64,000 nt of DNA. It comes from Octopus vulgaris (Eukaryota). The notes beneath the pieces were generated by a model. The model worked only from the letters and a program-made list of their open reading frames with translations. It was not told the origin of the DNA and made no database searches. The DNA lies in the NCBI GenBank assembly GCA_951406725.2, contig OX597824.1, forward strand, positions 54,994,001-55,058,000, written 5' to 3'. Positions 23,260-50,792 of the stretch are shown one piece after another (position 1 is the stretch's first letter; each line of letters starts with the position of its first letter). A program made the position numbers and the translations under genes.

Positions 23260-26200
23260 GCTACTTTCAAGCCTTCGCCATAACTTGATTTATCTTTCTA
23301 TCTCTCTCTCTACAAAATTTAACCTTAGGCTAGGCTACCTCAAGCCGTAATCCCATCTCTTCCCATCTCTTCCCATCTTTCAGCCATTGGCGGTCTTTTT
23401 TTCCTCCTCTTACCATTACGATTCTACAATTTAAATTCCCAATTCAACTAACTTACTTCTTCAATTTCAACTCCCGATCGATGTCCGCAGCAAGTTCTTT
23501 AAAAATTTATCTTAATATTTCTATTCGTTGTTACTACGTTTATTCATACATTGTTACGAAAATTTAACCTTTTAAGGCTACTTTCAAGCCTTCGCCATAA
23601 CTTGATTTATCTTTCTATCTCTCTCTCTACAAAATTTAACCTTAGGCTAGGCTACCTCAAGCCGTAATCCCATCTCTTCCCATCTCTTCCCATCTTTCAG
23701 CCATTGGCGGTCTTTTTTCCTCCTCTTACCATTACGATTCTACAATTTAAATTCCCAATTCAACTAACTTACTTCTTCAATTTCAACTCCCGATCGATGT
23801 CCGCAGCAAGTTCTTTAAAAATTTATCTTAATATTTCTATTCGTTGTTACTACGTTTATTCATACATTGTTACGAAAATTTAACCTTTTAAGGCTACTTT
23901 CAAGCCTTCGCCATAACTTGATTTATCTTTCTATCTCTCTCTCTACAAAATTTAACCTTAGGCTAGGCTACCTCAAGCCGTAATCCCATCTCTTCCCATC
24001 TCTTCCCATCTTTCAGCCATTGGCGGTCTTTTTTTCCTCCTCTTACCATTACGATTCTACAATTTAAATTCCCAATTCAACTAACTTACTTCTTCAATTT
24101 CAACTCCCGATCGATGTCCGCAGCAAGTTCTTTAAAAATTTATCTTAATATTTCTATTCGTTGTTACTACGTTTATTCATACATTGTTACGAAAATTTAA
24201 CCTTTTAAGGCTACTTTCAAGCCTTCGCCATAACTTGATTTATCTTTCTATCTCTCTCTCTACAAAATTTAACCTTAGGCTAGGCTACCTCAAGCCGTAA
24301 TCCCATCTCTTCCCATCTCTTCCCATCTTTCAGCCATTGGCGGTCTTTTTTTTCCTCCTCTTACCATTACGATTCTACAATTTAAATTCCCAATTCAACT
24401 AACTTACTTCTTCAATTTCAACTCCCGATCGATGTCCGCAGCAAGTTCTTTAAAAATTTATCTTAATATTTCTATTCGTTGTTACTACGTTTATTCATAC
24501 ATTGTTACGAAAATTTAACCTTTTAAGGCTACTTTCAAGCCTTCGCCATAACTTGATTTATCTTTCTATCTCTCTCTCTACAAAATTTAACCTTAGGCTA
24601 GGCTACCTCAAGCCGTAATCCCATCTCTTCCCATCTCTTCCCATCTTTCAGCCATTGGCGGTCTTTTTTTCCTCCTCTTACCATTACGATTCTACAATTT
24701 AAATTCCCAATTCAACTAACTTACTTCTTCAATTTCAACTCCCGATCGATGTCCGCAGCAAGTTCTTTAAAAATTTATCTTAATATTTCTATTCGTTGTT
24801 ACTACGTTTATTCATACATTGTTACGAAAATTTAACCTTTTAAGGCTACTTTCAAGCCTTCGCCATAACTTGATTTATCTTTCTATCTCTCTCTCTACAA
24901 AATTTAACCTTAGGCTAGGCTACCTCAAGCCGTAATCCCATCTCTTCCCATCTCTTCCCATCTTTCAGCCATTGGCGGTCTTTTTTCCTCCTCTTACCAT
25001 TACGATTCTACAATTTAAATTCCCAATTCAACTAACTTACTTCTTCAATTTCAACTCCCGATCGATGTCCGCAGCAAGTTCTTTAAAAATTTATCTTAAT
25101 ATTTCTATTCGTTGTTACTACGTTTATTCATACATTGTTACGAAAATTTAACCTTTTAAGGCTACTTTCAAGCCTTCGCCATAACTTGATTTATCTTTCT
25201 ATCTCTCTCTCTACAAAATTTAACCTTAGGCTAGGCTACCTCAAGCCGTAATCCCATCTCTTCCCATCTCTTCCCATCTTTCAGCCATTGGCGGTCTTTT
25301 TTTCCTCCTCTTACCATTACGATTCTACAATTTAAATTCCCAATTCAACTAACTTACTTCTTCAATTTCAACTCCCGATCGATGTCCGCAGCAAGTTCTT
25401 TAAAAATTTATCTTAATATTTCTATTCGTTGTTACTACGTTTATTCATACATTGTTACGAAAATTTAACCTTTTAAGGCTACTTTCAAGCCTTCGCCATA
25501 ACTTGATTTATCTTTCTATCTCTCTCTCTACAAAATTTAACCTTAGGCTAGGCTACCTCAAGCCGTAATCCCATCTCTTCCCATCTCTTCCCATCTTTCA
25601 GCCATTGGCGGTCTTTTTTTCCTCCTCTTACCATTACGATTCTACAATTTAAATTCCCAATTCAACTAACTTACTTCTTCAATTTCAACTCCCGATTTAT
25701 CTTTCTATCTCTCTCTCTACAAAATTTAACCTTAGGCTAGGCTACCTCAAGCCGTAATCCCATCTCTTCCCATCTCTTCCCATCTTTCAGCCATTGGCGG
25801 TCTTTTTTTCCTCCTCTTACCATTACGATTCTACAATTTAAATTCCCAATTCAACTAACTTACTTCTTCAATTTCAACTCCCGATCGATGTCCGCAGCAA
25901 GTTCTTTAAAAATTTATCTTAATATTTCTATTCGTTGTTACTACGTTTATTCATACATTGTTACGAAAATTTAACCTTTTAAGGCTACTTTCAAGCCTTC
26001 GCCATAACTTGATTTATCTTTCTATCTCTCTCTCTACAAAATTTAACCTTAGGCTAGGCTACCTCAAGCCGTAATCCCATCTCTTCCCATCTCTTCCCAT
26101 CTTTCAGCCATTGGCGGTCTTTTTTTCCTCCTCTTACCATTACGATTCTACAATTTAAATTCCCAATTCAACTAACTTACTTCTTCAATTTCAACTCCCG

Positions 26201-29173
26201 ATCGATGTCCGCAGCAAGTTCTTTAAAAATTTATCTTAATATTTCTATTCGTTGTTACTACGTTTATTCATACATTGTTACGAAAATTTAACCTTTTAAG
26301 GCTACTTTCAAGCCTTCGCCATAACTTGATTTATCTTTCTATCTCTCTCTCTACAAAATTTAACCTTAGGCTAGGCTACCTCAAGCCGTAATCCCATCTC
26401 TTCCCATCTCTTCCCATCTTTCAGCCATTGGCGGTCTTTTTTCCTCCTCTTACCATTACGATTCTACAATTTAAATTCCCAATTCAACTAACTTACTTCT
26501 TCAATTTCAACTCCCGATCGATGTCCGCAGCAAGTTCTTTAAAAATTTATCTTAATATTTCTATTCGTTGTTACTACGTTTATTCATACATTGTTACGAA
26601 AATTTAACCTTTTAAGGCTACTTTCAAGCCTTCGCCATAACTTGATTTATCTTTCTATCTCTCTCTCTACAAAATTTAACCTTAGGCTAGGCTACCTCAA
26701 GCCGTAATCCCATCTCTTCCCATCTCTTCCCATCTTTCAGCCATTGGCGGTCTTTTTTTCCTCCTCTTACCATTACGATTCTACAATTTAAATTCCCAAT
26801 TCAACTAACTTACTTCTTCAATTTCAACTCCCGATCGATGTCCGCAGCAAGTTCTTTAAAAATTTATCTTAATATTTCTATTCGTTGTTACTACGTTTAT
26901 TCATACATTGTTACGAAAATTTAACCTTTTAAGGCTACTTTCAAGCCTTCGCCATAACTTGATTTATCTTTCTATCTCTCTCTCTACAAAATTTAACCTT
27001 AGGCTAGGCTACCTCAAGCCGTAATCCCATCTCTTCCCATCTCTTCCCATCTTTCAGCCATTGGCGGTCTTTTTTTCCTCCTCTTACCATTACGATTCTA
27101 CAATTTAAATTCCCAATTCAACTAACTTACTTCTTCAATTTCAACTCCCGATCGATGTCCGCAGCAAGTTCTTTAAAAATTTATCTTAATATTTCTATTC
27201 GTTGTTACTACGTTTATTCATACATTGTTACGAAAATTTAACCTTTTAAGGCTACTTTCAAGCCTTCGCCATAACTTGATTTATCTTTCTATCTCTCTCT
27301 CTACAAAATTTAACCTTAGGCTAGGCTACCTCAAGCCGTAATCCCATCTCTTCCCATCTCTTCCCATCTTTCAGCCATTGGCGGTCTTTTTTTCCTCCTC
27401 TTACCATTACGATTCTACAATTTAAATTCCCAATTTACTAACAACTCAAAATTTATCAATATTTCTTTCGTTGTTACTACGTTTATTCATCTTGTTACAA
27501 ATAACCTTTAAGGCTACTTTCAAGCCTTCGCCATAACTTATTTATCTTTTCTCTACTTCAGGCTACCTCAAGCCGTAATCCCATCTCTTCCCATCTCTTC
27601 CCATCTTTCAGCCATTGGCGGTCTTTTTTCCTCCTCTTACCATTACGATTCTACAATTTAAATTCCCAATTCAACTAACTTACTTCTTCAATTTCAACTC
27701 CCGATCGATGTCCGCAGCAAGTTCTTTAAAAATTTATCTTAATATTTCTATTCGTTGTTACTACGTTTATTCATACATTGTTACGAAAATTTAACCTTTT
27801 AAGGCTACTTTCAAGCCTTCGCCATAACTTGATTTATCTTTCTATCTCTCTCTCTACAAAATTTAACCTTAGGCTAGGCTACCTCAAGCCGTAATCCCAT
27901 CTCTTCCCATCTCTTGGCGGTCTTTTTTCCTCCTCTTACCATTACGATTCTACAATTTAAATTCCCAATTCAACTAACTTACTTCTTCAATTTCAACTCC
28001 CGATCGATGTCCGCAGCAAGTTCTTTAAAAATTTATCTTAATATTTCTATTCACTACGTTTATTCATACATTGTTACGAAAATTTAACCTTTTAAGGCTA
28101 CTTTCAAGCCTTCGCCATAACTTGATTTATCTTTCTATCTCTCTCTACAAAATTTAACCTTAGGCTAGGCTACCTCAAGCCGTAATCCCATCTCTTCCCA
28201 TCTCTTCCCATCTTTCAGCCATTGGCGGTCTTTTTTCCTCCTCTTACCATTACGATTCTACAATTTAAATTCCCAATTCAACTAACTTACTTTACCAACT
28301 CCCGATCGATGTCCGCAGCAAGTTCTTTTAAAATTTATCTTAATATTTCTATTCGTTGTTACTACGTTTATTCATACATTGTTACGAAAATTTAACCTTT
28401 TAAGGCTACTTTCAAGCCTTCGCCATAACTTGATTTATCTTTCTATCTCTCTCTCTACAAAATTTAACCTTAGGCTAGGCTACCTCAAGCCGTAATCCCA
28501 TCTCTTCCCATCTCTTCCCATCTTTCAGCCATTGGCGGTCTTTTTTTCCTCCTCTTACCATTACGATTCTACAATTTAAATTCCCAATTCAACTAACTTA
28601 CTTCTTCAATTTCAACTCCCGATCGATGTCCGCAGCAAGTTCTTTAAAAATTTATCTTAATATTTCTATTCGTTGTTACTACGTTTATTCATACATTGTT
28701 ACGAAAATTTAACCTTTTAAGGCTACTTTCAAGCCTTCGCCATAACTTGATTTATCTTTCTATCTCTCTCTCTACAAAATTTAACCTTAGGCTAGGCTAC
28801 CTCAAGCCGTAATCCCATCTCTTCCCATCTCTTCCCATCTTTCAGCCATTGGCGGTCTTTTTTTCCTCCTCTTACCATTACGATTCTACAATTTAAATTC
28901 CCAATTCAACTAACTTACTTCTTCAATTTCAACTCCCGATCGATGTCCGCAGCAAGTTCTTTAAAAATTTATCTTAATATTTCTATTCGTTGTTACTACG
29001 TTTATTCATACATTGTTACGAAAATTTAACCTTTTAAGGCTACTTTCAAGCCTTCGCCATAACTTGATTTATCTTTCTATCTCTCTCTCTACAAAATTTA
29101 ACCTTAGGCTAGGCTACCTCAAGCCGTAATCCCATCTCTTCCCATCTCTTCCCATCTTTCAGCCATTGGCGGT
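23260..29173 (+). repeat. Tandem satellite, ~317-bp monomer, ~19 copies, derived from the RTE 5' UTR
   Basis: GCTACTTTCAAGCC recurs at 23260, 23577, 23893, 24210 and onward; monomers are almost identical. The monomer is homologous to 31511-31547 + 31986-32263. Confidence 0.95.
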
Positions 29174-30131
29174 GCGCCCGCCCCTCCACCCCCACCACCA
29201 ATACCGATGAACACTGTTCTCACCCCCACCACCAATACCGGTGAACACTGTTCTCACCGCCAACACCACCAATACTGGTGAACACTGTTCCTCACCCCCC
29301 ACCACCAATACCAGTATACCCTGTCCTCACCATCTACACCGGATACGCCTTACTCATCTACACCGGGTACGCCCTACTCCCTCCTCCTCCCCCACTACCC
29401 CCTTCTCCTCATATGCTTTCACTGTGAAAAGACAAGCTGCTAGCGCCATAGCTCATCAACTGCCCACCGATCTTACGCTTCCTCCTGACACTGCTTCATT
29501 CCGACTATCCCCCTTTAGCACCCTCCCGCCTCGTAATATCCTACGTTTTTATTTCTTAGGAACCTACACCAACCCTTCCTGCCATCGTTCCTCCTTACCC
29601 CAACCTTCCCCACTGGTTGCTCCCTATATTACCCACCTCAACTGGACCCCCCTCCCAACTCAACTCTAGAATATCTGTATTCTTTCCTCTACCTAATAAC
29701 GTTACTCAGTGACGATAACGAATGTCTTTATTTCTTAGGAACCTACACCAACCCTTCCTTACTCAGTGACGATAAATGCTGTGACTACAAAGACCCGGGC
29801 TGCTTTCTGCAGCAATTCCACATACCCCCTACTCATTCTAAGTACCCCGGATCCCCAAAGTACCCTGGATCCCCAAAGTACCCCGGACCTCGTTGCCCCC
29901 GTGCCGCTGACACGTTAAAATGCTCGAACCGATCGTGACGATGCCGGACCCTCCGGCCCCTGTGGGTGGCACGTAAAGCACCCAATCCACTCACGGAGTG
30001 GTTGGCGTTAGGAAGGGCATCCAGCCGTAGAAACTCTGCCAGATTCAGACTGGAGCCTGGTGCGGCCCCCTGGCTTCCCAGACCCGGTCAAACCGTCCAA
30101 CCCGTGCTAGCGCGGAAAGCGGACGTTAAAC

Positions 30132-30167
<36 letters not shown>
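29173..30167 (+). mobile_element. Non-autonomous internally deleted RTE derivative (5' UTR fused to 3' end)
   Basis: 29173-29726 matches 32263-32901 and 29777-30167 matches 36047-36459. Almost the whole ORF is missing; (GAT)n tail present. Confidence 0.9.
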
Positions 30168-30192
30168 ATATATATATATATATACATACATA

Positions 30193-30580
30193 GGCGCAGG
30201 AGTGGCTGTGTGGTAAGTAGCTTGCTAACCAACCACATGGTTCTGGGTTCAGTCCCACTGCGTGACATCTTGGGCAAGTGTCTTCTGCTATAGCCCTGGG
30301 CCGACCAATGCCTTGTGAGTGGATTTGGTAGACAGAAACTGAAAGAAGCCTGTCGTATATATGTATATATATATATGTATGTGTGTGTCTGTGTTTGTCC
30401 CCCTAGCATTGCTTGACAACCAATGTGTTTATGTCCCCGTCACTTAGCAGTTCGGCAAAAGAGACCGATAGAATAAGTACTGGGCTTACAAAGAATAAGT
30501 CCCGGGGTCGATTTGCTCAACTAAAGGCGGTGCTCCAGCATGGCCACAGTCAAATGAATGAAACAAGTAAAAGAGTAAAA
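30193..30580 (+). mobile_element. tRNA-derived CORE-type SINE (octopus OK/OR-like)
   Basis: A box TGGCTGTGTGG, B box GGTTCAGTCCC, CORE-like CTTGGGCAAGTG, internal TA/TG tract, LINE-like tail GGCGGTGCTCCAGCATGGCC...AAACAAGTAAAAGAGTAAAA. Confidence 0.85.
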
Positions 30581-30581
30581 G

Positions 30582-30631
<50 letters not shown>

Positions 30632-31210: not shown

Positions 31211-31512
31211 TTTTTTTTTCGATTCAATTTATTATTATTATTACTAGTATTGTTGTTATACATACATACATACATACATACAAGCATATGTAATGATAAT
31301 AATGGGTGGATGTAAACACATGAACAAAATAAGAATAAACAAAAACAACAAAAACAAAAAACAAAAAAAACAAAAAAAACAAAATACAAATTACATGAAC
31401 ATATAAAATTACAAATTACATGAACATATATAAACAGAAAATACAAATATTACAGGCATCCCCCACATACACACATTAAATAAACATAAACGCACATAGA
31501 GATATATAAGCA
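30751..31512 (+). mobile_element. PLE family 2 remnant: inverted pLTR piece (30751-30872), GIY-YIG C-terminus (30873-31088) and 3' UTR
   Basis: LKEGKSSSILYQHAEQEH..EATHIIENKPSLNRKLEW as in 46041-46470. 30751-30872 matches ~45403-45524 in the orientation opposite to the ORF. Confidence 0.85.
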
Positions 31513-31579
31513 ATTCAACTTACTTTCTTCTTCAATTTCAACTCCCGTACATATATATATATATATATATACATATATC

Positions 31580-31735
<156 letters not shown>

Positions 31736-31737
31736 CA

Positions 31738-31977
<240 letters not shown>

Positions 31978-32277
31978 CATATATGTCGATGCCCGCAGCA
32001 AGTTCTTAAAAATTTATCTTACTATTTTTATTTTTCCATACATAGCGCGACATACATTCATTCGTTGTTACTACGTTTATTCATACATTGATAACTTGAT
32101 TCGTCTTACCCATCTCACTCCCTACGAAAATTTAACCTTTTAGGCTACTTTCAAGCCTTCGCCATAACTTGATTTATCTTTCCTATCTCTCTCTCTACGA
32201 ATTTAACCTTAGGCTACCTCAAGCCGTAATCCCATCTTTCCCCATCTTTCCGCCATCGGCGGTGCGCCCGCCCCCCA

Positions 32278-32465
32278 CCCCCACCACCAATACCGATGAA
32301 CACTGTTCTCACCCCCACCACCAATACCGATGAACACTGTTCTCACCCCCACCACCAATACCGGTGAACACTGTTCTCACCCCCACCACCAATACCGGTG
32401 AACACTGTTCTCACCGCCACCACCAATATCGGTGAACACTGTTCTCACCCCCACCACCAATACCA
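32278..32465 (+). repeat. 33-bp minisatellite in RTE 5' UTR (~5.5 copies; ~4 copies at 29190-29315)
   Basis: CCCCACCACCAATACCGRTGAACACTGTTCTCA tandem units. Confidence 0.85.
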
Positions 32466-32930
32466 GTATATCCTGTTCTCACCATCTACACCGGATACGC
32501 CCTACTCCCTCCTCCTCCCCCCACTACCCCTTCTCCTCATATGCTTTCACTGTGAAAAGACAAGCTGCTAGCGCCATAGCTCATCAACTGCCCACCGATC
32601 TTACGCTTCCTCCTGACACTGCCTCAATCCGACCATCCCCTTTTAGTACCCTCCCGCCTCGTAATATCCTACGTTTTTATTTCTTACGAACCTACACCAA
32701 CCCTTCCTGCCATCGTTCCTCCTTACCCCAACCTTCCCCACTGGTTGCTCCCCTATATTACCCGCACCCTCTACTATCTCTCCCTCTCTTTCACTGGTGA
32801 AACCTTTCTCAACTGGACCCCCCCCTCCCCAACTCAACTCTAGAATATCTGTATTTCTTTCCTCTACCTAATTACGTTACTCAGTGACGATAACGAATGT
32901 CCACTGCTAACACCAGCTCCTGCCCACGGC

Positions 32931-35900
32931 GTGGTCAGGTTGGAAGAGAGATCAAAAGAAAAATACCACGAAAACTATCACCACCACAACAACCCTCCTC
33001 TTCTCAGGCGCCGAATCCCCCCCGTCCCCCCCATTTCCTTCCCAGTTTTCAGAGTTGGCACTATCAATGTTGGTACATTGACAGGCAAGTCTAGTGAGAT
33101 TGTAGAGATGCTAGAGAGAAGACAGGTTGATGTATGCTGCATACAAGAGGTAAGATGGAGAGATGCTTCGGCTAGGGTCCTCACGGGCAAGGCACTTAGG
33201 TACAAACTCTACTGGCAAGGTAACGCGGAAGGTGTAGGGGGTGTAGGCATTCTCCTTGCGGAGGAATGGGTGGATAAGGTCATAGAGGTTGTCAGGGTTT
33301 GTGATAGAGTGCTTAAGCTCAGGTTGGTCCTACAGAGTGGCACAGCTATGATTATCTCAGCCTATGCCCCACAAGCGGGACTACCAAATGATCAGAAGGA
33401 CAACTTTTATGATACCCTTCTGCAGGCTACTTCAAAGACTAGTAACAAGGACCTCATCTTTGTAGGTGGAGATTTTAATGGGCATGTTGGGCGGGAATCG
33501 GGTATCTTCACTGGGGTACATGGTGGCTATGGTATTGGCACCAGAAATGATGAGGGAACTAGACTGCTGGAATTCTGTGATGCATGTAACCTTTCAATCT
33601 GCAACACTAACTTCAAGAAGCCAGTCTGCCACCTTATAACTTATCAGTCAGGAGACTCCGCTAGCCAAATAGACTTCATCCTCACCAGACAACGGGATGC
33701 AGGGTTGCTCTTGAATACAAAGACCCTCCCGGGTGAAGAATGTATCCCTCAGCATAGACTAATCATCAGTGACTTTAAGCTTGAGGCCAGAAGGACTCCA
33801 AGAAACAAACCAATCCAGAAAAGAAGGATTTGGAGGCTAAAGAACCCTTCGCATGGTCAGAAATTTAGGGACATACTCATCAAGAAATTTGATGAGAGGG
33901 AGGAGGAGCTTCAGACGTCAGACATAGAAGGTAGCTGGGAATTCCTACGGGACAGCTTGCTGAGTGCCACAGACCAAGTCTGTGGATGGTGCAAAGTCCC
34001 TTCCAGACCTAGAATTACGTGGTGGTGGAATAGTGCAGTAGATAAAGCCATCTGTGAAAAGAGACGGGCCTGGAAAGCCTGGAAGGATGGGGGCAGCAGG
34101 GAACTGTACCAGATAGCCAAAAGGGAGGCTGGGCGGCAGGTATACATTGCCAAAGATGTAGCAGAAAAGAAGAAGTTTGCCAATGTCCAGCGTCGCGAGG
34201 ATCAAAGAGCTGAAGTATTTCGGATTGCCAGACAATGTGTCAGAGAAAATAGCGATGTTATAGGAGAGAAATGTGTCCGCATGGATGATGGGGCACTTGC
34301 TTTTACTACTAGTGAAAAGAAAGAGGCTTGGAGAAGCCATTATGAAAGACTGCTGAATGAGGAGAATGAATGGGAGGAGGAGAGCCTGCCAAATGTTGAC
34401 CCAGTAGAGGGACCAGCTACCCGAATAGACAGCTCCCTTGTAGATAAGGCAATTAAGGATATGAAACCAGGCAAAGCCCCTGGCCTATCAGGAATCACTG
34501 CTGAGATGCTTAAAACAGCTGGCTATGTGGGCTATGCCATAGTCACCCGCATTGTAAACCAGGTAGTTCACAATGGAGTCATACCCAATGACTGGTGCAG
34601 CAGCACCATAGTCAACTGCTACAAGGGTAAGGGTGATGCTCTAGATAGAAATAACTACAGAGGTATCAAACTGTTGGACCAGGTGATGAAGGTCTCAGAG
34701 AAGGTCATAACCAATCTCATTAGGGAGAGAATTTGTTTAGATGAAATGCAGTTCGGTTTTGTACCAGGTAGAAGCACCACTGATGCTATATTCCTGGTCC
34801 GACAACTGCAGGAGAAGTACCTAGCTAAAGATAAACCCCTCTACATAGCTTTTGTAGACTTGGAGAAAGCCTTTGACAGGGTTCCCCGTTCCCTTATCTG
34901 GTGGTCGATGCGGAAACTGGAGATTGAAGAATGGCTAATAAGGGCTGTACAGGCTCTATACAGAGAGGCTGTCAGCAAGGTTAGGATTGGCAACGAATAT
35001 AGTGAAGAATTCCGGGTAGAAGTAGGTGTGCACCAGGGCTCAGCCCTCAGTCCCCTTTTATTCATCATAGTCCTTCAGGCAATAACAGAGGAATTCAAAA
35101 CGGGATGCCCCTGGGAGCTCCTCTATGCCGATGACCTAGCTCTCATAGCAGAATCACTACCGGAACTAGAAGAGAAATTTCGGGTGTGGAAGCAAGGGTT
35201 GGAATCAAAGGGCCTTAGAATAAATGTAGCAAAGACCAAAGTATTAGTAAGCAGCAAGAGGTACTCAGCACACACCCCCTCGGGTAGGTGGCCCTGCTCA
35301 ACCTGTAGGAAAGGTACAGGTAGAAACTCCATAAGATGCACCCAATGTAAGTTATGGACACATAAGAGGTGCAGCAACATTAAAGGGAAATTAACAGATA
35401 AGATAGCTTTCATGTGCGGCAGATGCACAGGGACAATAGACACAACAGACACTCAGAAAACAGATTCCATCACACTCCAGGGAGAGAAACTAGAAGTAGT
35501 TGATAGTTTCCGCTACCTGGGTGACCAAGTTAGTAGCGGAGGTGGATGCACAGAGAGTATCACCACTAGAATACGAATAGCCTGGGCAAAGTTCAGAAAG
35601 CTCCTACCCCTACTGGCAACAAAAGGTCTCTCCCTCAGAGCAAAAGGTAGATTGTATGATGCATGTGTGCGAACTGCCATGCTTCACGGTAATGAAACAT
35701 GGGCTGTGACTGCAGAAGACATGCGTGGACTTGAAAGAAATGAAGCTAGCATGATCCGCTGGATGTGTAGTGTCAGTGTGCACGCAAGACAGAGTGTAAG
35801 CATCCTGAGAGAAATGCTGGATATAAGAAGCATCAGATGTGGTGTGCAAGAGCGACGCTTGCGATGGTATGGTCATGTGCTGCGGATGGATGAAGAGAGA

Positions 35901-36125
35901 TGTGTGAAGAAGTGCCACTCCCAAACAGTTGAAGGTATCAGGGGGAGAGGTAGACCCAGGAAGACATGGGATGAGGTAGTCAAGCATGACCTCAGAGCAT
36001 TGGGCCTCACTGAGGCAATGGCGAAGGACCGAGATCTCTGGAGATATGCTGTGACTACAAAGACCCGGGCTGCTTTCTGCAGCAATTCCACATACCCCCT
36101 ACCCCCTACCCCCTACCCATTCTAA
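32931..36125 (+). CDS. RTE-clade LINE polyprotein: APE endonuclease + reverse transcriptase with inserted PHD-type zinc finger (1064 aa, uninterrupted)
   Basis: EN: GTINV, CIQEVRW, SAYAPQ, GDFNGHVG, QIDFIL. RT: NYRGIKLL, QFGFVPGRSTTDAIF, FVDLEKAFDRV, GVHQGSALSPLLF, YADD, FRYLG. RTE-type C-terminus RRLRWYGHV..RGRGRPRKTW. The start codon is uncertain (GTG). Confidence 0.93.
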   Translation: MVRLEERSKEKYHENYHHHNNPPLLRRRIPPVPPISFPVFRVGTINVGTLTGKSSEIVEMLERRQVDVCCIQEVRWRDASARVLTGKALRYKLYWQGNAEGVGGVGILLAEEWVDKVIEVVRVCDRVLKLRLVLQSGTAMIISAYAPQAGLPNDQKDNFYDTLLQATSKTSNKDLIFVGGDFNGHVGRESGIFTGVHGGYGIGTRNDEGTRLLEFCDACNLSICNTNFKKPVCHLITYQSGDSASQIDFILTRQRDAGLLLNTKTLPGEECIPQHRLIISDFKLEARRTPRNKPIQKRRIWRLKNPSHGQKFRDILIKKFDEREEELQTSDIEGSWEFLRDSLLSATDQVCGWCKVPSRPRITWWWNSAVDKAICEKRRAWKAWKDGGSRELYQIAKREAGRQVYIAKDVAEKKKFANVQRREDQRAEVFRIARQCVRENSDVIGEKCVRMDDGALAFTTSEKKEAWRSHYERLLNEENEWEEESLPNVDPVEGPATRIDSSLVDKAIKDMKPGKAPGLSGITAEMLKTAGYVGYAIVTRIVNQVVHNGVIPNDWCSSTIVNCYKGKGDALDRNNYRGIKLLDQVMKVSEKVITNLIRERICLDEMQFGFVPGRSTTDAIFLVRQLQEKYLAKDKPLYIAFVDLEKAFDRVPRSLIWWSMRKLEIEEWLIRAVQALYREAVSKVRIGNEYSEEFRVEVGVHQGSALSPLLFIIVLQAITEEFKTGCPWELLYADDLALIAESLPELEEKFRVWKQGLESKGLRINVAKTKVLVSSKRYSAHTPSGRWPCSTCRKGTGRNSIRCTQCKLWTHKRCSNIKGKLTDKIAFMCGRCTGTIDTTDTQKTDSITLQGEKLEVVDSFRYLGDQVSSGGGCTESITTRIRIAWAKFRKLLPLLATKGLSLRAKGRLYDACVRTAMLHGNETWAVTAEDMRGLERNEASMIRWMCSVSVHARQSVSILREMLDIRSIRCGVQERRLRWYGHVLRMDEERCVKKCHSQTVEGIRGRGRPRKTWDEVVKHDLRALGLTEAMAKDRDLWRYAVTTKTRAAFCSNSTYPLPPTPYPF

Positions 36126-36457
36126 GTACCCCGGATCCCCAAAGTACCCTGGATCCCCAAAGTACCCCGATCCCCAAAGTACCCCGGACCTTGTTGCCCC
36201 CGTGCCGCTGACACGTTAAAAGCTCGAACCGATCGTGACCGATGCCGGACCCTCCGGCCCCTGTGCAGGTGGCACGTAAAAAGCACCCAATCCACTCACG
36301 GAGTGGTTGGCGTTAGGAAGGGCATCCAGCCGTAGAAACTCTGCCAGATTCAGACTGGAGCCTGGAGCGGCCCCTGGCTTCCCAGACCCGGTCGAACCGT
36401 CCAACCCGTGCTAGCGCGGAAAGCGGACGTTAAACGATGATGATGATGATGATGATG

Positions 36458-36990
<533 letters not shown>

Positions 36991-37002
36991 CATACATATG
37001 TA

Positions 37003-39755
37003 GTTGATGTAGTTGTGTGTGCTACATATCGCCCTCCAGATGCCCCAAGTCATATGGGCAAATTTGAGGACTGCCTTTTAAAATTAGAAGAAGTTCTAAC
37101 CACATTAGAACAACACATAAGTGTACTTCTCATGGGAGACTTCAATCTACCGAATGTCAGATGGCCCGAGGGCCTTTCTCTCCCAGGAATGACAAGATGT
37201 GAACGAGGACAGGTTAGGTCCCTCCTGAACCTCATCAACACCCTGTACATGGAGCAAGTAATACTCCAACCAACCAGAGCAGGTAACACACTGGATCTCT
37301 GCTTCACAAATAATATGGATCTCATCCATAATGTGAAAGTGACACCGACACTACTCTCGGATCACAACATGGTAGAGCTGACCATGTACGGGCCAAAAGA
37401 GAGCACGGACATGCAGCCTACAAGAAACCCTCAGAATCTTTCCAGCTTGAACTTCAATAAGGCAAACTGGAAACAAATTGAGAAAGAGATCCTCAAACAA
37501 AACTGGCCTGAATGTCTCTCCTCGCCGGACATCGACAGGATACTTCAACAATTCATGTCTGTAATGCAAGCCATATGCTACAAATGTGTCCCAGAGAGAA
37601 AGGCCACTGTACACAAGAACAAAATCCCCAGAGAGAGGAAAATTTTAATGAGACGGCGTACAAAAATTTCAAATCGCCTAAACAAACAAATTGAAAGCAG
37701 TGAAAAGTCCCGCCTGAAAATAAAACTGTTGGAAATTGAAAATTGTCTGCAACTCTCCCATGAGAAGGAAAGAGCAGACAAAGAAGCCTGGGCTATAGAC
37801 AACATAAAAACTAACCCCAGAGCTTTCTACAGGTATGCCAAAGAAACAGCTACGGTGCACTGTAGGATAGGGCCACTCCTTGAAAAGGATGGAACACTCA
37901 CAGGAAAACCAATGAGGGTAAGTGAAATACTGAATGAACAATTCAAGAGTGTTTTCACTCCACCCCTTGGGCATTTCCAAATCAGCAATCCAACTGACTT
38001 CTTTACCACTGCAGATATAAAATCAGAGGCGGCGACGATAAATTACATCGATATAAAGGAAGACGATGTAATAAAGGCTATAGATGAAATGAAAATAGAC
38101 TCAGCTATTGGCCCCGATGGATTCCCGGCAATCCTCCTAAAAGTATGTAAGAGAGTCTTAGCAAGACCACTGCAGTTCCTCTTTCAGAGCTTCCTTGCAG
38201 CTGGCAAACTTCCAAGAAAACTGAAGGAAGGTAAAATATGCCCTATTCATAAAGGAGGTAGCAGAGCGGAGGCCAAGAACTACAGACCTATCTCTCTGAC
38301 CTCACACATCAGCAAGGTCATGGAACGAATAGTCAGAAGGAAACTAATCACCTTCCTTGAAGAAAATGACTTGCTGCCTGACACCCAACATGGTTTCCGA
38401 CCAGGAAGAAGCTGCTTAACTCAGCTCCTGCAGCACTATGACTGGGTGCTGAAACAACTGCTCAACCACTCAAATGTGGAAGTCATATATCTCGACTTCG
38501 CAAAGGCCTTCGATAAAGTCGATCATGGAATGATATGTCACAAACTGCGTGATCTTGGCATAGTTGGAAAACTAGGAGAATGGCTTCACGACTCTCTAAA
38601 GAATAGAAGCCAGGTGGTAGAAGCCAATGGGGCCACTTCCATTAGCACACAAATAGTGAGCGGTGTTCCACAGGGCACTGTTTTGGGACCACTACTGTTC
38701 ATAATGGCCCTCTCAGACATGCCCTCAGCCACGCGGAGAGCCACGATCACAAGTTATGCAGATGATACAAAAGTTTCACAGGCAATACAGAACCCTGAAG
38801 ACACTAGGCACCTGCAATATAAGCTGGACGAAATATACAAGTGGGCTGAAAAGAATAGCATGCAGTTCAATGCTGAAAAGTTTCAAGCTTTATACTATCA
38901 GCATGCAAAACTGAATGCAATACCCAAGGAATACACTGGACCCGGAGGGATTGCAATCCCAGAGGCACAATCAGTGCGTGACCTGGGTATTCACATGAGT
39001 GATGACGCGACCTTTCATGTACATGTTGCTAAACTGACAATGAAATGCAGACGGCTGGCTGGATGGATTCTTAGAACCTTTAGAACAAGAGAACAAGAAA
39101 CCATGATGGTCCTCTGGAAGACACTTGTCCTAAGCCACTTTGACTATTGCTCTCAGCTATGGTCACCATCCAGTGTCAAGTTGATCACAGAACTTGAGGC
39201 GATCCAACGAAGCTACACGAAGAAGATAGCCTCTATGCAGAATGTAAGCTACTGGGAAAGACTCAAGAGATTAAAATTATATTCCCTGGAGCGTAGGCGG
39301 GAAAGATATGCCATAATATACATCTGGAAGATCCTGGAGGGAAGTGTCCTGAACTTTGGCATCGAGAGTTACGCAAATGCCAGAACTGGGCGCCACTGCG
39401 TGGTGCCTAGGACTCCAAACTTGCCATCAAGATGTAGGACAAGATTCTGTGATAGCCTGGGCTTCCGAGGCCCACAGCTCTTCAATATCCTCCCGAAGAA
39501 CCTGAGAGACCTGCATGGGGTGGATACAGATGTCTTTAAAATGGAGCTGGATCTCTTCCTGTCAGGTGTCCCAGATGAACCAACTTCACGGCAGGAGGGG
39601 CAGATGAGGGCAGCTGCATCGAACTCTCTCATGCACCAAATAGCAGTTGCTAGAAAGCCTCCATGAAGTGAAACCAAGTAGCAACACCAAATGGCGGTGC
39701 CCCAGCATGGCCACAGCTCATAAGCTGAAACTAGAATCAATCAATCAATCAATCA
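37003..39755 (+). mobile_element. CR1/L2-like LINE subfamily A, 5'-truncated, open ORF2 37015-39666 (partial EN + RT)
   Basis: [27 protein letters not shown]; RT motifs including YADD; (AATC)n tail. Confidence 0.92.
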
Positions 39756-39868
39756 TATATATATATATATATATACATATATATATACATATATATATAC
39801 ATATATATATACATATATATATATATACATATATATATATACATATATATATATACATATATATATAC

Positions 39869-39924
<56 letters not shown>

Positions 39925-39926
39925 GC

Positions 39927-39975
<49 letters not shown>

Positions 39976-40039
39976 CATATATATATATACATATATATAT
40001 ACATATATATATACATATATATATACATATATATATATA

Positions 40040-41425
40040 CACAGAACCGGAGTGGCAAATATACGAATTCAATCACTTACCGTTAATAGCGGACATATGT
40101 TTCTGGATCGCAAACGTGGAAACAGTTTGAATTCCGTCATCGGCGCTATATTCGATAGTTTTACTAAATGCCACTAGCCCTCACTTCTGACCCAGCGACA
40201 TCAGATAGTGGGGGGAAAGTGCAGATGTTAAAACTAAGTGGCGACTGGGAACGTAAATTTTCCCTCCAAAATTCTGCCATGCGCGCTTTCTGGTTAATCG
40301 TAATGGAATGAGGAATCCACATGGTAATTCAATAAAAATGGTAAATAATTTTCCTGTGGTTTATCATGTAACCAACAATTATTTACCGGTAAATTTCGGT
40401 ATGTAAATACGACAAATTAATTGTCAAGACCTTTGTAAGGTTCAGTATATAGTAAAGAAAAAATAAGAAGGCTAACAGCAGGCTGTTTCACCTCATACCG
40501 AAGGAATTAGAAATGGCAGTCAAAGACCGTTTTTCCAATTTCTATAAGTGGAGAATCCAAAAACGAAGGCCCTTACGGCTCACATACACAAAACCGGAGT
40601 GGCAAATATACGAATTCAATCACTTACCGTTAATAGCGGACATATGTTTCTGGATCGCAAACGTGGAAACAGTTTGAATTCCGTCATCGGCGCTATATTC
40701 GATAGTTTTACTAAATGCCACTAGCCCTCACTTCTGACCCAGCGACATCAGATAGTGGGGGGAAAGTGCAGATGTTAAAACTAAGTGGCGACTGGGAACG
40801 TAAATTTTCCCTCCAAAATTCTGCCATGCGCGCTTTCTGGTTAATCGTAATGGAATGAGGAATCCACATGGTAATTCAATAAAAATGGTAAATAATTTTC
40901 CTGTGGTTTATCATGTAACCAATAGAAATTGGAAAAACGGTCTTTGACTGCCATTTCTAATTCCTTCGGTATGAGGTGAAACAGCCTGCTGTTAGCCTTC
41001 TTATTTTTTCTTTACTATATACTGAACCTTACAAAGGTCTTGACAATTAATTTGTCGTATTTACATACCGAAATTTACCGGTAAATAATTGTTGGTTACA
41101 TGATAAACCACAGGAAAATTATTTACCATTTTTATTGAATTACCATGTGGATTCCTCATTCCATTACGATTACCCAGAAAGCGCGCATGGCAGAATTTTG
41201 GAGGAAAATTTACGTTCCCAGTCGCCACTTAGTTTTAACATCTGCACTTTCCCCCCACTATCTGATGTCGCTGGGTCAGAAGTGAGGGCTAGTGGCATTT
41301 AGTAAAACTATCGAATATAGCGCCGATGACGGAATTCAAACTGTTTCCACGTTTGCGATCCAGAAACATATGTCCGCTATTAACGGTAAGTGATTGAATT
41401 CGTATATTTGCCACTCCGGTTTTGT
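40040..41425. repeat. 547-bp unit repeat: ~1.6 direct copies (40040-40921) plus an inverted copy (40922-41425)
   Basis: AACCGGAGTGGC at 40045 and 40592; reverse complement begins at 40922. Confidence 0.9.
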
Positions 41426-41458
41426 GTATATATATATATGTATATATATATGTATATA

Positions 41459-41541
<83 letters not shown>

Positions 41542-41707
41542 GCATATATATATATATATGTATATATATATGTATATATATATGTATATATATATATATG
41601 TATATATATATGTATATATATATGTATATATATATATGTATATATATATATGTATATATATATATGTATATATATATGTATATATATATGTATATATATA
41701 TATATAT

Positions 41708-42066
41708 ATGATTGATTGATTGATTGATTCTAGTTTCAGCTTATGAGCTGTGGCCATGCTGGGGCACCGCCATTTGGTGTTGCTACTTGGTTTCACTTCA
41801 TGGAGGCTTTCTAGCAACTGCTATTTGGTGCATGAGAGAGTTCGATGCAGCTGCCCTCATCTGCCCCTCCTGCCGTGAAGTTGGTTCATCTGGGACACCT
41901 GACAGGAAGAGATCCAGCTCCATTTTAAAGACATCTGTATCCACCCCATGCAGGTCTCTCAGGTTCTTCGGGAGGATATTGAAGAGCTGTGGGCCTCGGA
42001 AGCCCAGGCTATCACAGAATCTTGTCCTACATCTTGATGGCAAGTTTGGAGTCCTAGGCACCACGC
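41708..42066 (-). mobile_element. Inverted duplicate of the LINE A 3' end (39398-39755)
   Basis: Appears identical by eye, including the private variants AGCCTCCATGA and CAAATAGCAG. Confidence 0.9.
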
Positions 42067-50597: not shown

Positions 50598-50788
50598 TGG
50601 CACGTAAAAAACACCCACTACACTCGCGGAGTGGTTGGCGTTAGGAAGGGCATCCAGCTGTAGAAACACTGCCAGACTAGACTGGAGCCTGGGGCAGTCC
50701 CGAGCTCCCCAGACCCCGGTCGAAACCGTCCAACCCGTGCTAGCGCGGAAAACGGACGTTAAACGATGATGATGATGATGATGATGAT
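50598..50788 (+). mobile_element. RTE 3'-end fragment with (GAT)n tail
   Basis: Homologous to 36270-36459. Confidence 0.85.
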
Positions 50789-50792
50789 ATAA

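Follow-up and report, generated by a model that had tools for sequence, protein, structure and literature searches.

A long tandem array of a 317-bp unit leads directly into a LINE-derived body in the genome of Octopus vulgaris, and the locus raises the question of whether such an array is the amplified internal promoter of a LINE family or a nascent satellite caught at its birthplace, the two branches offered by the initial annotation. The analysis was based on a stretch of 64,000 nucleotides from contig OX597824.1 (hereafter the window), whose positions are used below, and on contigs from public runs.

The tandem array and its unit

The array and its borders are composed of the following features:

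23160..23259, no strand: 100-N scaffold gap; the left end of the array and the left target-site flank are missing
23260..29173, + strand: tandem array of the 317-bp unit; 20 units (one partial, 14 full and five with deletions)
28857..29173, + strand: last, complete unit; 35.6% GC, 10 CpG (observed/expected 1.33)

Cut at the unit end, the assembled sequence 23260-29173 gave 20 units and 19 head-to-tail junctions, with a length of 18.7 unit-lengths (5.9 kb). The repeat array of about 19 near-identical 317-bp monomers described in the initial annotation was thereby confirmed, while the count is corrected to 20 units or 18.7 unit-lengths; the length of at least 5.9 kb also stands for the assembled sequence, as the left side is open at the gap, which cuts a partial unit of 135 bp. 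Fourteen of the 20 units are 316-318 bp long and carry zero substitutions, the sole variation being a T-run of 6, 7 or 8, and the five deletion-bearing units measure 189, 237, 299, 308 and 310 bp. The junction text CCATTGGCGGT|CTTTTTT is present at 18 of the 19 junctions, in agreement with the constant unit end and restart noted earlier, and one unit lacks the 17 bp directly 5' of TTGGCGGT. The last unit runs via GCGCCCG into the LINE-derived body, likewise as first described. Homogenised and built of head-to-tail units of more than 100 bp, the array has the form of satellite DNA.

The last unit contains two GGCT-N6/7-AGCC palindromes, which come from an old internal duplication, and an Inr-like motif (YYANWYY) is located at unit position 47. 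The composition of the unit is not that of a CpG island, being AT-rich, and the mouse YY1 motif GCCATCTT is absent from it, with only two GCCAT cores present. A search of metagenome_contigs and viral_contigs for the exact 23-nt unit motif yielded 0 matches, which is unsurprising for DNA of an animal.

A ribozyme or structured-RNA reading of the unit or 5' UTR (retrozyme, HDV-headed LINE) was considered and dropped. No ribozyme family was found among 33 Rfam matches (E<=5), which consisted of AT-repeat noise and a sub-threshold snoRNA match; approximate descriptors of the HDV and hammerhead cores gave no match, and folding was no better than that of shuffles (z = 0.59 and 0.02).

The ORF-less derivative and the neighbouring LINE

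The body that follows the array consists of three parts:

29174..29726, + strand: non-repeated, tether-like rest of the LINE 5' UTR, homologous to 32264-32901
29727..29775, + strand: internal-deletion junction, which replaces the whole ORF
29776..30167, + strand: LINE 3' end, homologous to 36046-36459 with 1.1% substitutions; (GAT)12 tail at 30132-30167

The first part opens with 34-bp minisatellite units and stops 2 nt past the ATG of the upstream ORF, and the junction holds two short re-copied pieces of the 5' UTR, resembling template switching. The array is therefore attached to a non-coding LINE derivative, as had been proposed: the 5' UTR is joined to the 3' end and the ORF is absent, which is the structure of a bipartite non-autonomous LINE.

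The neighbouring LINE lies downstream and is autonomous:

31502-31509, + strand: candidate left target-site duplication ATATATAA, followed by one extra G (31510) before the LINE
31511..32263, + strand: single 5'-truncated unit (positions 46-317) heading the LINE, with a TA tract inside
31548-31985, + strand: TA tract of ~438 bp interrupting this unit
32264..32896, + strand: remainder of the 5' UTR
32897..33094, + strand: upstream ORF of 65 codons, in a different frame from the main ORF, which it overlaps
32844..36125, + strand: uninterrupted frame, 1093 codons stop to stop, with AP endonuclease, reverse transcriptase and a PHD-like finger
36126..36467, + strand: 3' UTR with a (GAT)8 tail at 36436-36459 and a candidate right target-site duplication at 36460-36467

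The initial annotation had traced the unit to the 5'-most part of this element (31511-32263) and had named a lack of relatedness to the LINE 5' end as a possible refutation. The comparison upheld the relatedness: unit positions 46-317 match 31511-31547 and 31986-32263 with 244 matches, 9 substitutions (3.6%) and 10 gap events, positions 1-45 being missing from the neighbour, and the first 160 bp of the unit reached a local score of 169, whereas 500 shuffles scored 50 at most.

A short overlapping upstream ORF and a short 3' UTR ending in a microsatellite are traits of the RTE clade. Microsatellite ends are also reported in PMC6007223. The neighbour has both traits, together with one long ORF that combines AP endonuclease and reverse transcriptase as in RTE-clade LINEs, and it likely belongs to this clade; clade names were present neither on the 120 listed of 226 reverse transcriptase homologues nor on Atlas clusters. 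The family appears young, with an intact ORF and 1-5% substitutions between the two window copies.

The 5' end of the neighbour gives a hint of a transcription start within the unit. The element starts at unit position 46, behind the candidate 8-nt target-site duplication and the extra G, 1 nt before the Inr-like A, in one copy. In favour of the hint, only 3.2% of unit positions lie equally near an Inr-like motif, and of 5760 occurrences of ATATATA in the window 49 have A as the next base. The hint is post hoc and comes from AT-microsatellite terrain.

Tandem units in public datasets and their explanation

Four public runs (X1, X2, X5 and X19; 4 of the 24 listed, from four studies, contigs only) were compared, one of which is possibly the source of the assembly. 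The mean ratio of unit to 5'-body depth was 8.9, 7.8, 4.9 and 27.3, respectively. These depths, summed over contigs, should not be read as copy numbers, and a high density of variants raises them. The lowest unit bin exceeded the highest body bin in all four runs, with a depth step at the unit end, and depth at 28848 was 84-100% of that at 28858. Contigs with T-run indels directly behind the junction require an anchor in the preceding unit, so their depth is a lower bound for the junction; summed, it reached 4.1, 7.8, 2.4 and 3.9 times that of the unit-to-body exit bin. None of the 32 pieces listed, out of a set with 119,750 more, spans a head-to-tail junction by 31 letters per side. In X5 the tail/unit depth ratio was 927, compared with 26-75 in the DNA-like runs; that X5 is RNA is a guess, and the ratio proves nothing.

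Joints between units implied shorter units of ~278 bp (depth 1243), ~170 bp (3831/1034) and ~137 bp (138). Alleles of the neighbour are frequent among the pooled contigs, with 28912 A>T, for example, reaching 51-70% in three of the runs, and X19 has near-fixed private alleles (28873 T>C at 100% vs 0-5% elsewhere; 29110 T>C at 99.6% vs 0-3%). Tandem units are thus a genome-wide feature of the LINE family and not peculiar to 23260-29173, as head-to-tail junctions outnumber unit-to-body exits in 4/4 runs, several unit lengths occur and in one run a variant of its own is nearly fixed. This argues against a birthplace at the locus, so the nascent satellite of the initial annotation was not borne out, and also against a pure assembly artefact.

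The runs also contain candidate traces of such derivatives. An exact contig in X2 covers the first deletion junction at depth 2188, with 29 letters on the short side and thus below the threshold of 31, and four other listed contigs there have depths of 19-51. Further skips from 5' UTR to 3' end (29534>29828, 29595>29826, 29605>29839 and 29668/9>29917) suggest that derivatives of this form were born repeatedly.

The amplified internal promoter is the preferred branch. With moderate confidence, we regard the 317-bp unit as the repeating head at the 5' end of a LINE family (likely RTE), which probably acts as an expandable internal promoter like that of mouse L1, and the locus as a long-headed ORF-less derivative. 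Transcription by Pol II would begin within a unit, around position 46-47. A new insertion would therefore carry a truncated unit at its start and would inherit the downstream units as its own promoter. Heads would be re-lengthened at the DNA level by unequal exchange or slippage, sometimes to many kilobases, and homogenised, the longest grading into satellite-like blocks. Internal deletion in reverse transcription would yield an ORF-less derivative with a head and a 3' recognition end, for whose copying the enzyme of an intact relative, for instance the neighbouring LINE, would be used.

Besides the lack of a junction-spanning piece among those listed and the ambiguity of summed depth, the following observations speak against a promoter head. 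In the one autonomous copy observed, the head falls short of a whole unit, the two copies in the window carrying <1 and ~19 units, and the unit is AT-rich, not a CpG island and without the mouse YY1 motif.

A bolder proposal, which we put forward tentatively, is that a mollusc RTE-type LINE arrived independently at a monomeric promoter, phased and additive, that resembles the one of mouse L1, and that many-kilobase heads on ORF-less derivatives, homogenised separately per lineage, form a continuous series from LINE promoter to satellite.

It is less probable, but still a serious competitor, that the LINE-5'-derived unit now resides mainly in a few large body-less arrays without an additive promoter role, the locus being the edge of such a block joined to a derivative. 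Summed depth looks alike for many medium heads and for few huge free arrays, and the open left end, the 14 substitution-free units and the single partial unit on the one intact LINE all agree with this explanation, as does the commonness of such satellites (available text of PMC9659126). The ratio of 27 and the private alleles of X19 are what concerted evolution would give; however, sweeps of LINE-head subfamilies would fix variants too. Moreover, the two window copies pass from the unit into the body at exactly the same base, and the last unit shows no decay but is perfect. LINE heads can reach such lengths, as the L1Md promoter with 50 monomers demonstrates (available text of PMC6454616).

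The reverse direction, in which a pre-existing tandem repeat or the repeat of another mobile element was captured as the new 5' end of the LINE, is improbable. A switch of the 5' end has been reported from RTEs of plants (bioRxiv 10.1101/2022.11.04.512097), composition changes abruptly at the exit, from 36% to 52% GC, and X2 has an alternative 20-nt sequence ahead of unit position 16 (3 contigs); however, the window contains no unit copy outside the LINE context, and nothing else favours a separate origin. A captured 5' end would be compatible with later promoter use.

That the locus holds one to few units, with the contig end extended through repeats from elsewhere or over-polished, is very improbable: the array does lie at a contig end, its deviant units differ nearly by deletions only (unit 14: 16 deletions, 0 substitutions) as noisy long reads would, and differences may have been lost in polishing, but head-to-tail junctions and T-run variants are abundant in 4/4 runs from four studies, the units bear private deletions ordered along the locus, and such an artefact could alter the local count alone, not the family-wide tandem state.

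Comparison with known systems

The A-modules of TRE5-A were considered as a second precedent for tandem promoters and dropped: the literature consulted confirms the A-module as the plus-strand promoter, but not its tandem state. Monomeric LINE promoters have been described mainly from rodent L1, and neither monomer arrays at the 5' end of RTE elements nor the octopus repeat turned up in the openly searchable literature (outside Repbase, Dfam and subscription papers). If the preferred promoter reading is true, monomeric promoters, then present in a different LINE clade and phylum as well, would be a convergent answer to 5' truncation, and a comparative test of head regrowth would become possible. 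As the family is apparently young and arrays differ between datasets, it could serve to watch a promoter array become satellite DNA. The surprise is moderate, because each ingredient has a precedent (PMC6454616, PMC9022269, PMC5786205).

According to the available text of PMC9115989, RTE-2_OV of the same species is an RTE-clade element with one ORF of ~1100 aa (EN, RT, zinc finger) and UTRs of several hundred nt, in all of which proportions the neighbouring LINE resembles it. Identity of the two was ruled out: each of the 4 published primers compared differs from the neighbour at 6-8 of its 20 nt, and the neighbour therefore represents another family. A curated O. vulgaris library comprises 176 RTE and 80 satellite families (PMC13282606). 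Tandem repeats are not mentioned in the available text of that paper, nor were unit motifs found in its supplements (outside files 5-8 and two more).

Bov-A, RTESINE1/2, WALLSI3 and MAR4_MD likewise keep the 5' and 3' parts of an RTE-type LINE after internal deletion, and such bipartite elements are likely transcribed by Pol II (PMC5786205, available text). The word 'tandem' is absent from the main text of that paper, and in Bov-A2 it is whole units that form a dimer, which differs from an array of monomers at the 5' end.

Satellites derived from transposable elements include the cetacean common satellite (L1 3' end), 18HT (HeT-A), PisTR-A (Ogre 3' UTR) and ENSAT1 (En/Spm 5' UTR), and like the octopus array they are homogenised tandem repeats homologous to a non-coding transposon part (available text of PMC9659126). 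However, the LINE-derived ones among the table rows considered come from the 3' UTR or ORF2 and not from the 5' end, and, unlike them, the octopus array is still in register with the body of its element.

A further likeness is with mouse L1Md (A, Gf and Tf), in whose available descriptions tandem units also precede a non-repeated tether, with a variable unit number and a truncated 5'-most unit. The octopus derivative has this layout, with tandem units at the extreme 5' end and then a tether, and the resemblance to rodent L1 promoter arrays seen in the initial annotation holds in this respect. Its claim that the array is far longer than theirs does not: mouse promoters typically have 2-4 monomers, but one with 50 monomers (11.3 kb) has been published (available text of PMC6454616), and the rare giant arrays are ascribed to unequal crossing-over (PMC6454616, PMC9022269, PMC5381506, available text). 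The unit is ~200 bp in mouse and ~650 bp in rat (same sources), compared with 317 bp in the octopus, and the pooled unit/body ratio of 5-27, a rough value, lies above the mouse average of 2-4. The octopus element differs in LINE clade and phylum, in its AT-rich unit without the GCCATCTT site, and in that the array heads an ORF-less derivative and its promoter role is putative. Having one long ORF and only a 65-codon upstream ORF, it is an analogue and not a member of L1Md.

Array structure and relation to the neighbouring LINE

The initial annotation claimed about 19 near-identical monomers at 23260-29173, and splitting the array at the unit end gave 20 units with 19 head-to-tail junctions, one of the 20 being a partial unit cut by the 100-N gap. 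Fourteen of the 20 units are 316-318 bp long with zero substitutions, and deletions are present in five. The T-run at the junction is 6 nt long in 6/19 cases, 7 in 12/19 and 8 in 1/19. The deviant units differ almost exclusively by deletions (in unit 14, 16 of them and not one substitution). This resembles long-read error left uncorrected, and polishing may therefore account for part of the near-identity among the other units.

The proposed homology to the 5' end of the neighbouring LINE was confirmed. Unit positions 46-317 align with it (9 substitutions in 253 aligned columns, 10 gap events), and positions 1-160 score 169, where shuffled sequences reach at most 50; positions 1-45 have no counterpart in the neighbour. 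Neither a ribozyme nor a stable fold was found in the unit and 5' UTR. The unit also contains an older internal duplication (29017-29126; alignment score 32, shuffle maximum 24) with two GGCT-N6/7-AGCC palindromes, both retained in the neighbour at 32143 and 32212, which are candidate factor-binding sites.

Features of the array, the ORF-less derivative behind it and the neighbour (forward-strand coordinates)
23260-29173: array of 317-bp units
From 29174, derivative, 5' part: LINE 5' UTR through 2 nt past the upstream ATG
Derivative, middle: two short re-copied UTR pieces
Derivative, 3' part: final ~390 bp of the LINE
31511-36459: neighbour LINE; its 1093-codon open frame contains AP endonuclease, RT and a PHD finger (weak match)
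Neighbour upstream ORF: 65 codons, overlapping the main frame
Neighbour tail: (GAT)n

The neighbour presumably belongs to the RTE clade, whose typical features it matches. Its identity with RTE-2_OV was ruled out, since all 4 of the primers tested differ from its sequence at 6-8 of their 20 nt. The array copy and the neighbour copy leave the unit at an identical base. With its joined 5' and 3' parts and missing ORF, the derivative has the structure of the bipartite non-autonomous elements described for RTE (PMC5786205).

A (TA)n tract of ~438 bp with scattered CA (31548-31985) splits the neighbour's 5' end between unit positions 82 and 83; the absence of a TA seed there in related copies suggests microsatellite insertion rather than growth by slippage. 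The window is animal DNA, taken to be octopus from its SINE motifs, and it abounds in LINEs, SINE-like repeats and microsatellites of the (TA)n and (CA)n types. One repeat, SINE-like by its cephalopod SINE motifs, lies at 30190-30582 within a TA tract directly after the derivative's tail. Two long ORF fragments of a second LINE family, 37000-39666 (EN + RT) and 19083-21422, are 5'-truncated and adjoin TA tracts, and 23028-23159, left of the gap, resembles a further endonuclease fragment of this kind. A 1150-bp inverted repeat within 39398-42066 (39398-40545 vs 40922-42066, 98.5%) spans a LINE 3' end and a TA tract, encloses a direct duplication of 339 bp (40037-40375 vs 40584-40922) and is either a fold-back inversion or an assembly artefact.

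Tandem units in public sequencing runs

Four of 24 listed runs (X1, X2, X5 and X19; four studies, all Logan contigs), one perhaps the assembly's source, were compared over 28810-30130. Mean summed depth of the unit relative to the 5' body, the derivative's non-repeated 5' UTR, was 8.9, 7.8, 4.9 and 27.3, respectively, summed contig depth not being equal to copy number, and the lowest unit bin exceeded the highest body bin in 4/4 runs. Depth immediately left of the junction was 84-100% of that immediately right. Contigs with T-run indels right behind the junction are, we infer, necessarily anchored in the preceding unit; by themselves these contigs exceed the unit-to-body exit bin by factors of 4.1, 7.8, 2.4 and 3.9 and the body median by factors of 2.5, 2.1, 1.6 and 13.5, so T-run variation is also present in short-read data. 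None of the 32 pieces listed, a minority of the whole, bridged the junction by 31 letters per side.

Neighbour alleles are frequent in the pool; in X1, X2 and X5, A>T reaches 51-70% at positions 28912 and 28917. X19 has near-fixed alleles at 28873 (T>C, 100% vs 0-5% in the other runs) and 29110 (T>C, 99.6% vs 0-3%). Joints imply further unit lengths of ~278, ~170 and ~137 bp, at depths of 138 to 3831. In X2, a contig of depth 2188 runs without mismatch across the first of the derivative's deletion junctions, its short side of 29 letters being just below the tool's threshold, and four further 5'UTR-to-3'end skips were seen. Tandem units are thus family-wide and turning over, and the same probably applies to ORF-less derivatives. 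With several unit lengths and run-specific alleles across the family, the locus is a long example and not evidently the birthplace of a nascent satellite, as had been suggested.

In X2, three contigs at 28872 carry an alternative ~20-nt sequence with a CCGCCATT core ahead of unit position 16, which may be a different subfamily's non-tandem 5' end. The LINE's last ~150 bp (29980-30130), found also at 50598-50789 and 22113-22375, reach 26-75x unit depth in three runs, so this tail also belongs to a family of short elements with a very high copy number.

Possible promoter role of the unit

The sequence ATATATAA occurs on both sides of the neighbour (31502-31509 and 36460-36467), with one extra G ahead of its first base; the length of this candidate duplication, 8 nt, falls within the 7-15 bp that PMC6007223 gives for RTE. 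The first base corresponds to unit position 46, 1 nt ahead of the A in a YYANWYY motif, and with five such motifs per unit 3.2% of unit positions are so close to one. Within the window, ATATATA is followed by A in 49/5760 occurrences, and one of four (GAT)n tails is followed by ATATATAA. These post hoc observations on one copy hint at a transcription start within the unit near position 46.

We lean towards the unit being a repeated internal promoter. Initiation at a presumed start inside it would give insertions beginning with a truncated unit, whose heads might be regrown and homogenised by unequal exchange at the DNA level, at times to kilobases, and intact relatives would mobilise the ORF-less derivative in trans. 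A unit that is mostly free satellite is a less likely alternative. Capture of a pre-existing repeat by the LINE is unlikely, and local assembly inflation of the array more so; the initial annotation held that a depth of 1-2 monomers would speak against the array, and the unit stood at 4.9-27.3x the body in 4/4 runs, a pooled family signal and not a local count.

Comparison with known systems

The literature search found no paper on 5' monomer arrays in RTE elements, and repeat libraries, outside that search, may already include the family. Tandem 5' UTR motifs are catalogued for several mammalian L1s (PMC5381506). TE-derived satellites are numerous, and the LINE-derived ones among the table rows of PMC9659126 examined stem from the 3' UTR or ORF2. 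The unit differs from mouse L1 monomers in its GC content of 35.6% and in lacking, in a motif scan, the GCCATCTT motif known from them. According to PMC9022269 and PMC6454616, young mouse L1 subfamilies have on average 1.5-3.7 monomers, with ≤10 in 99% of promoters, and the longest promoter has 50 monomers over 11.3 kb, attributed to unequal crossing-over. Thus the array lies in the tail of the known monomer-number distribution, not beyond it. The earlier interpretation is partly supported: the homology to a LINE 5' end stands, and neither a birthplace at this locus nor a length far beyond rodent L1 arrays is supported.
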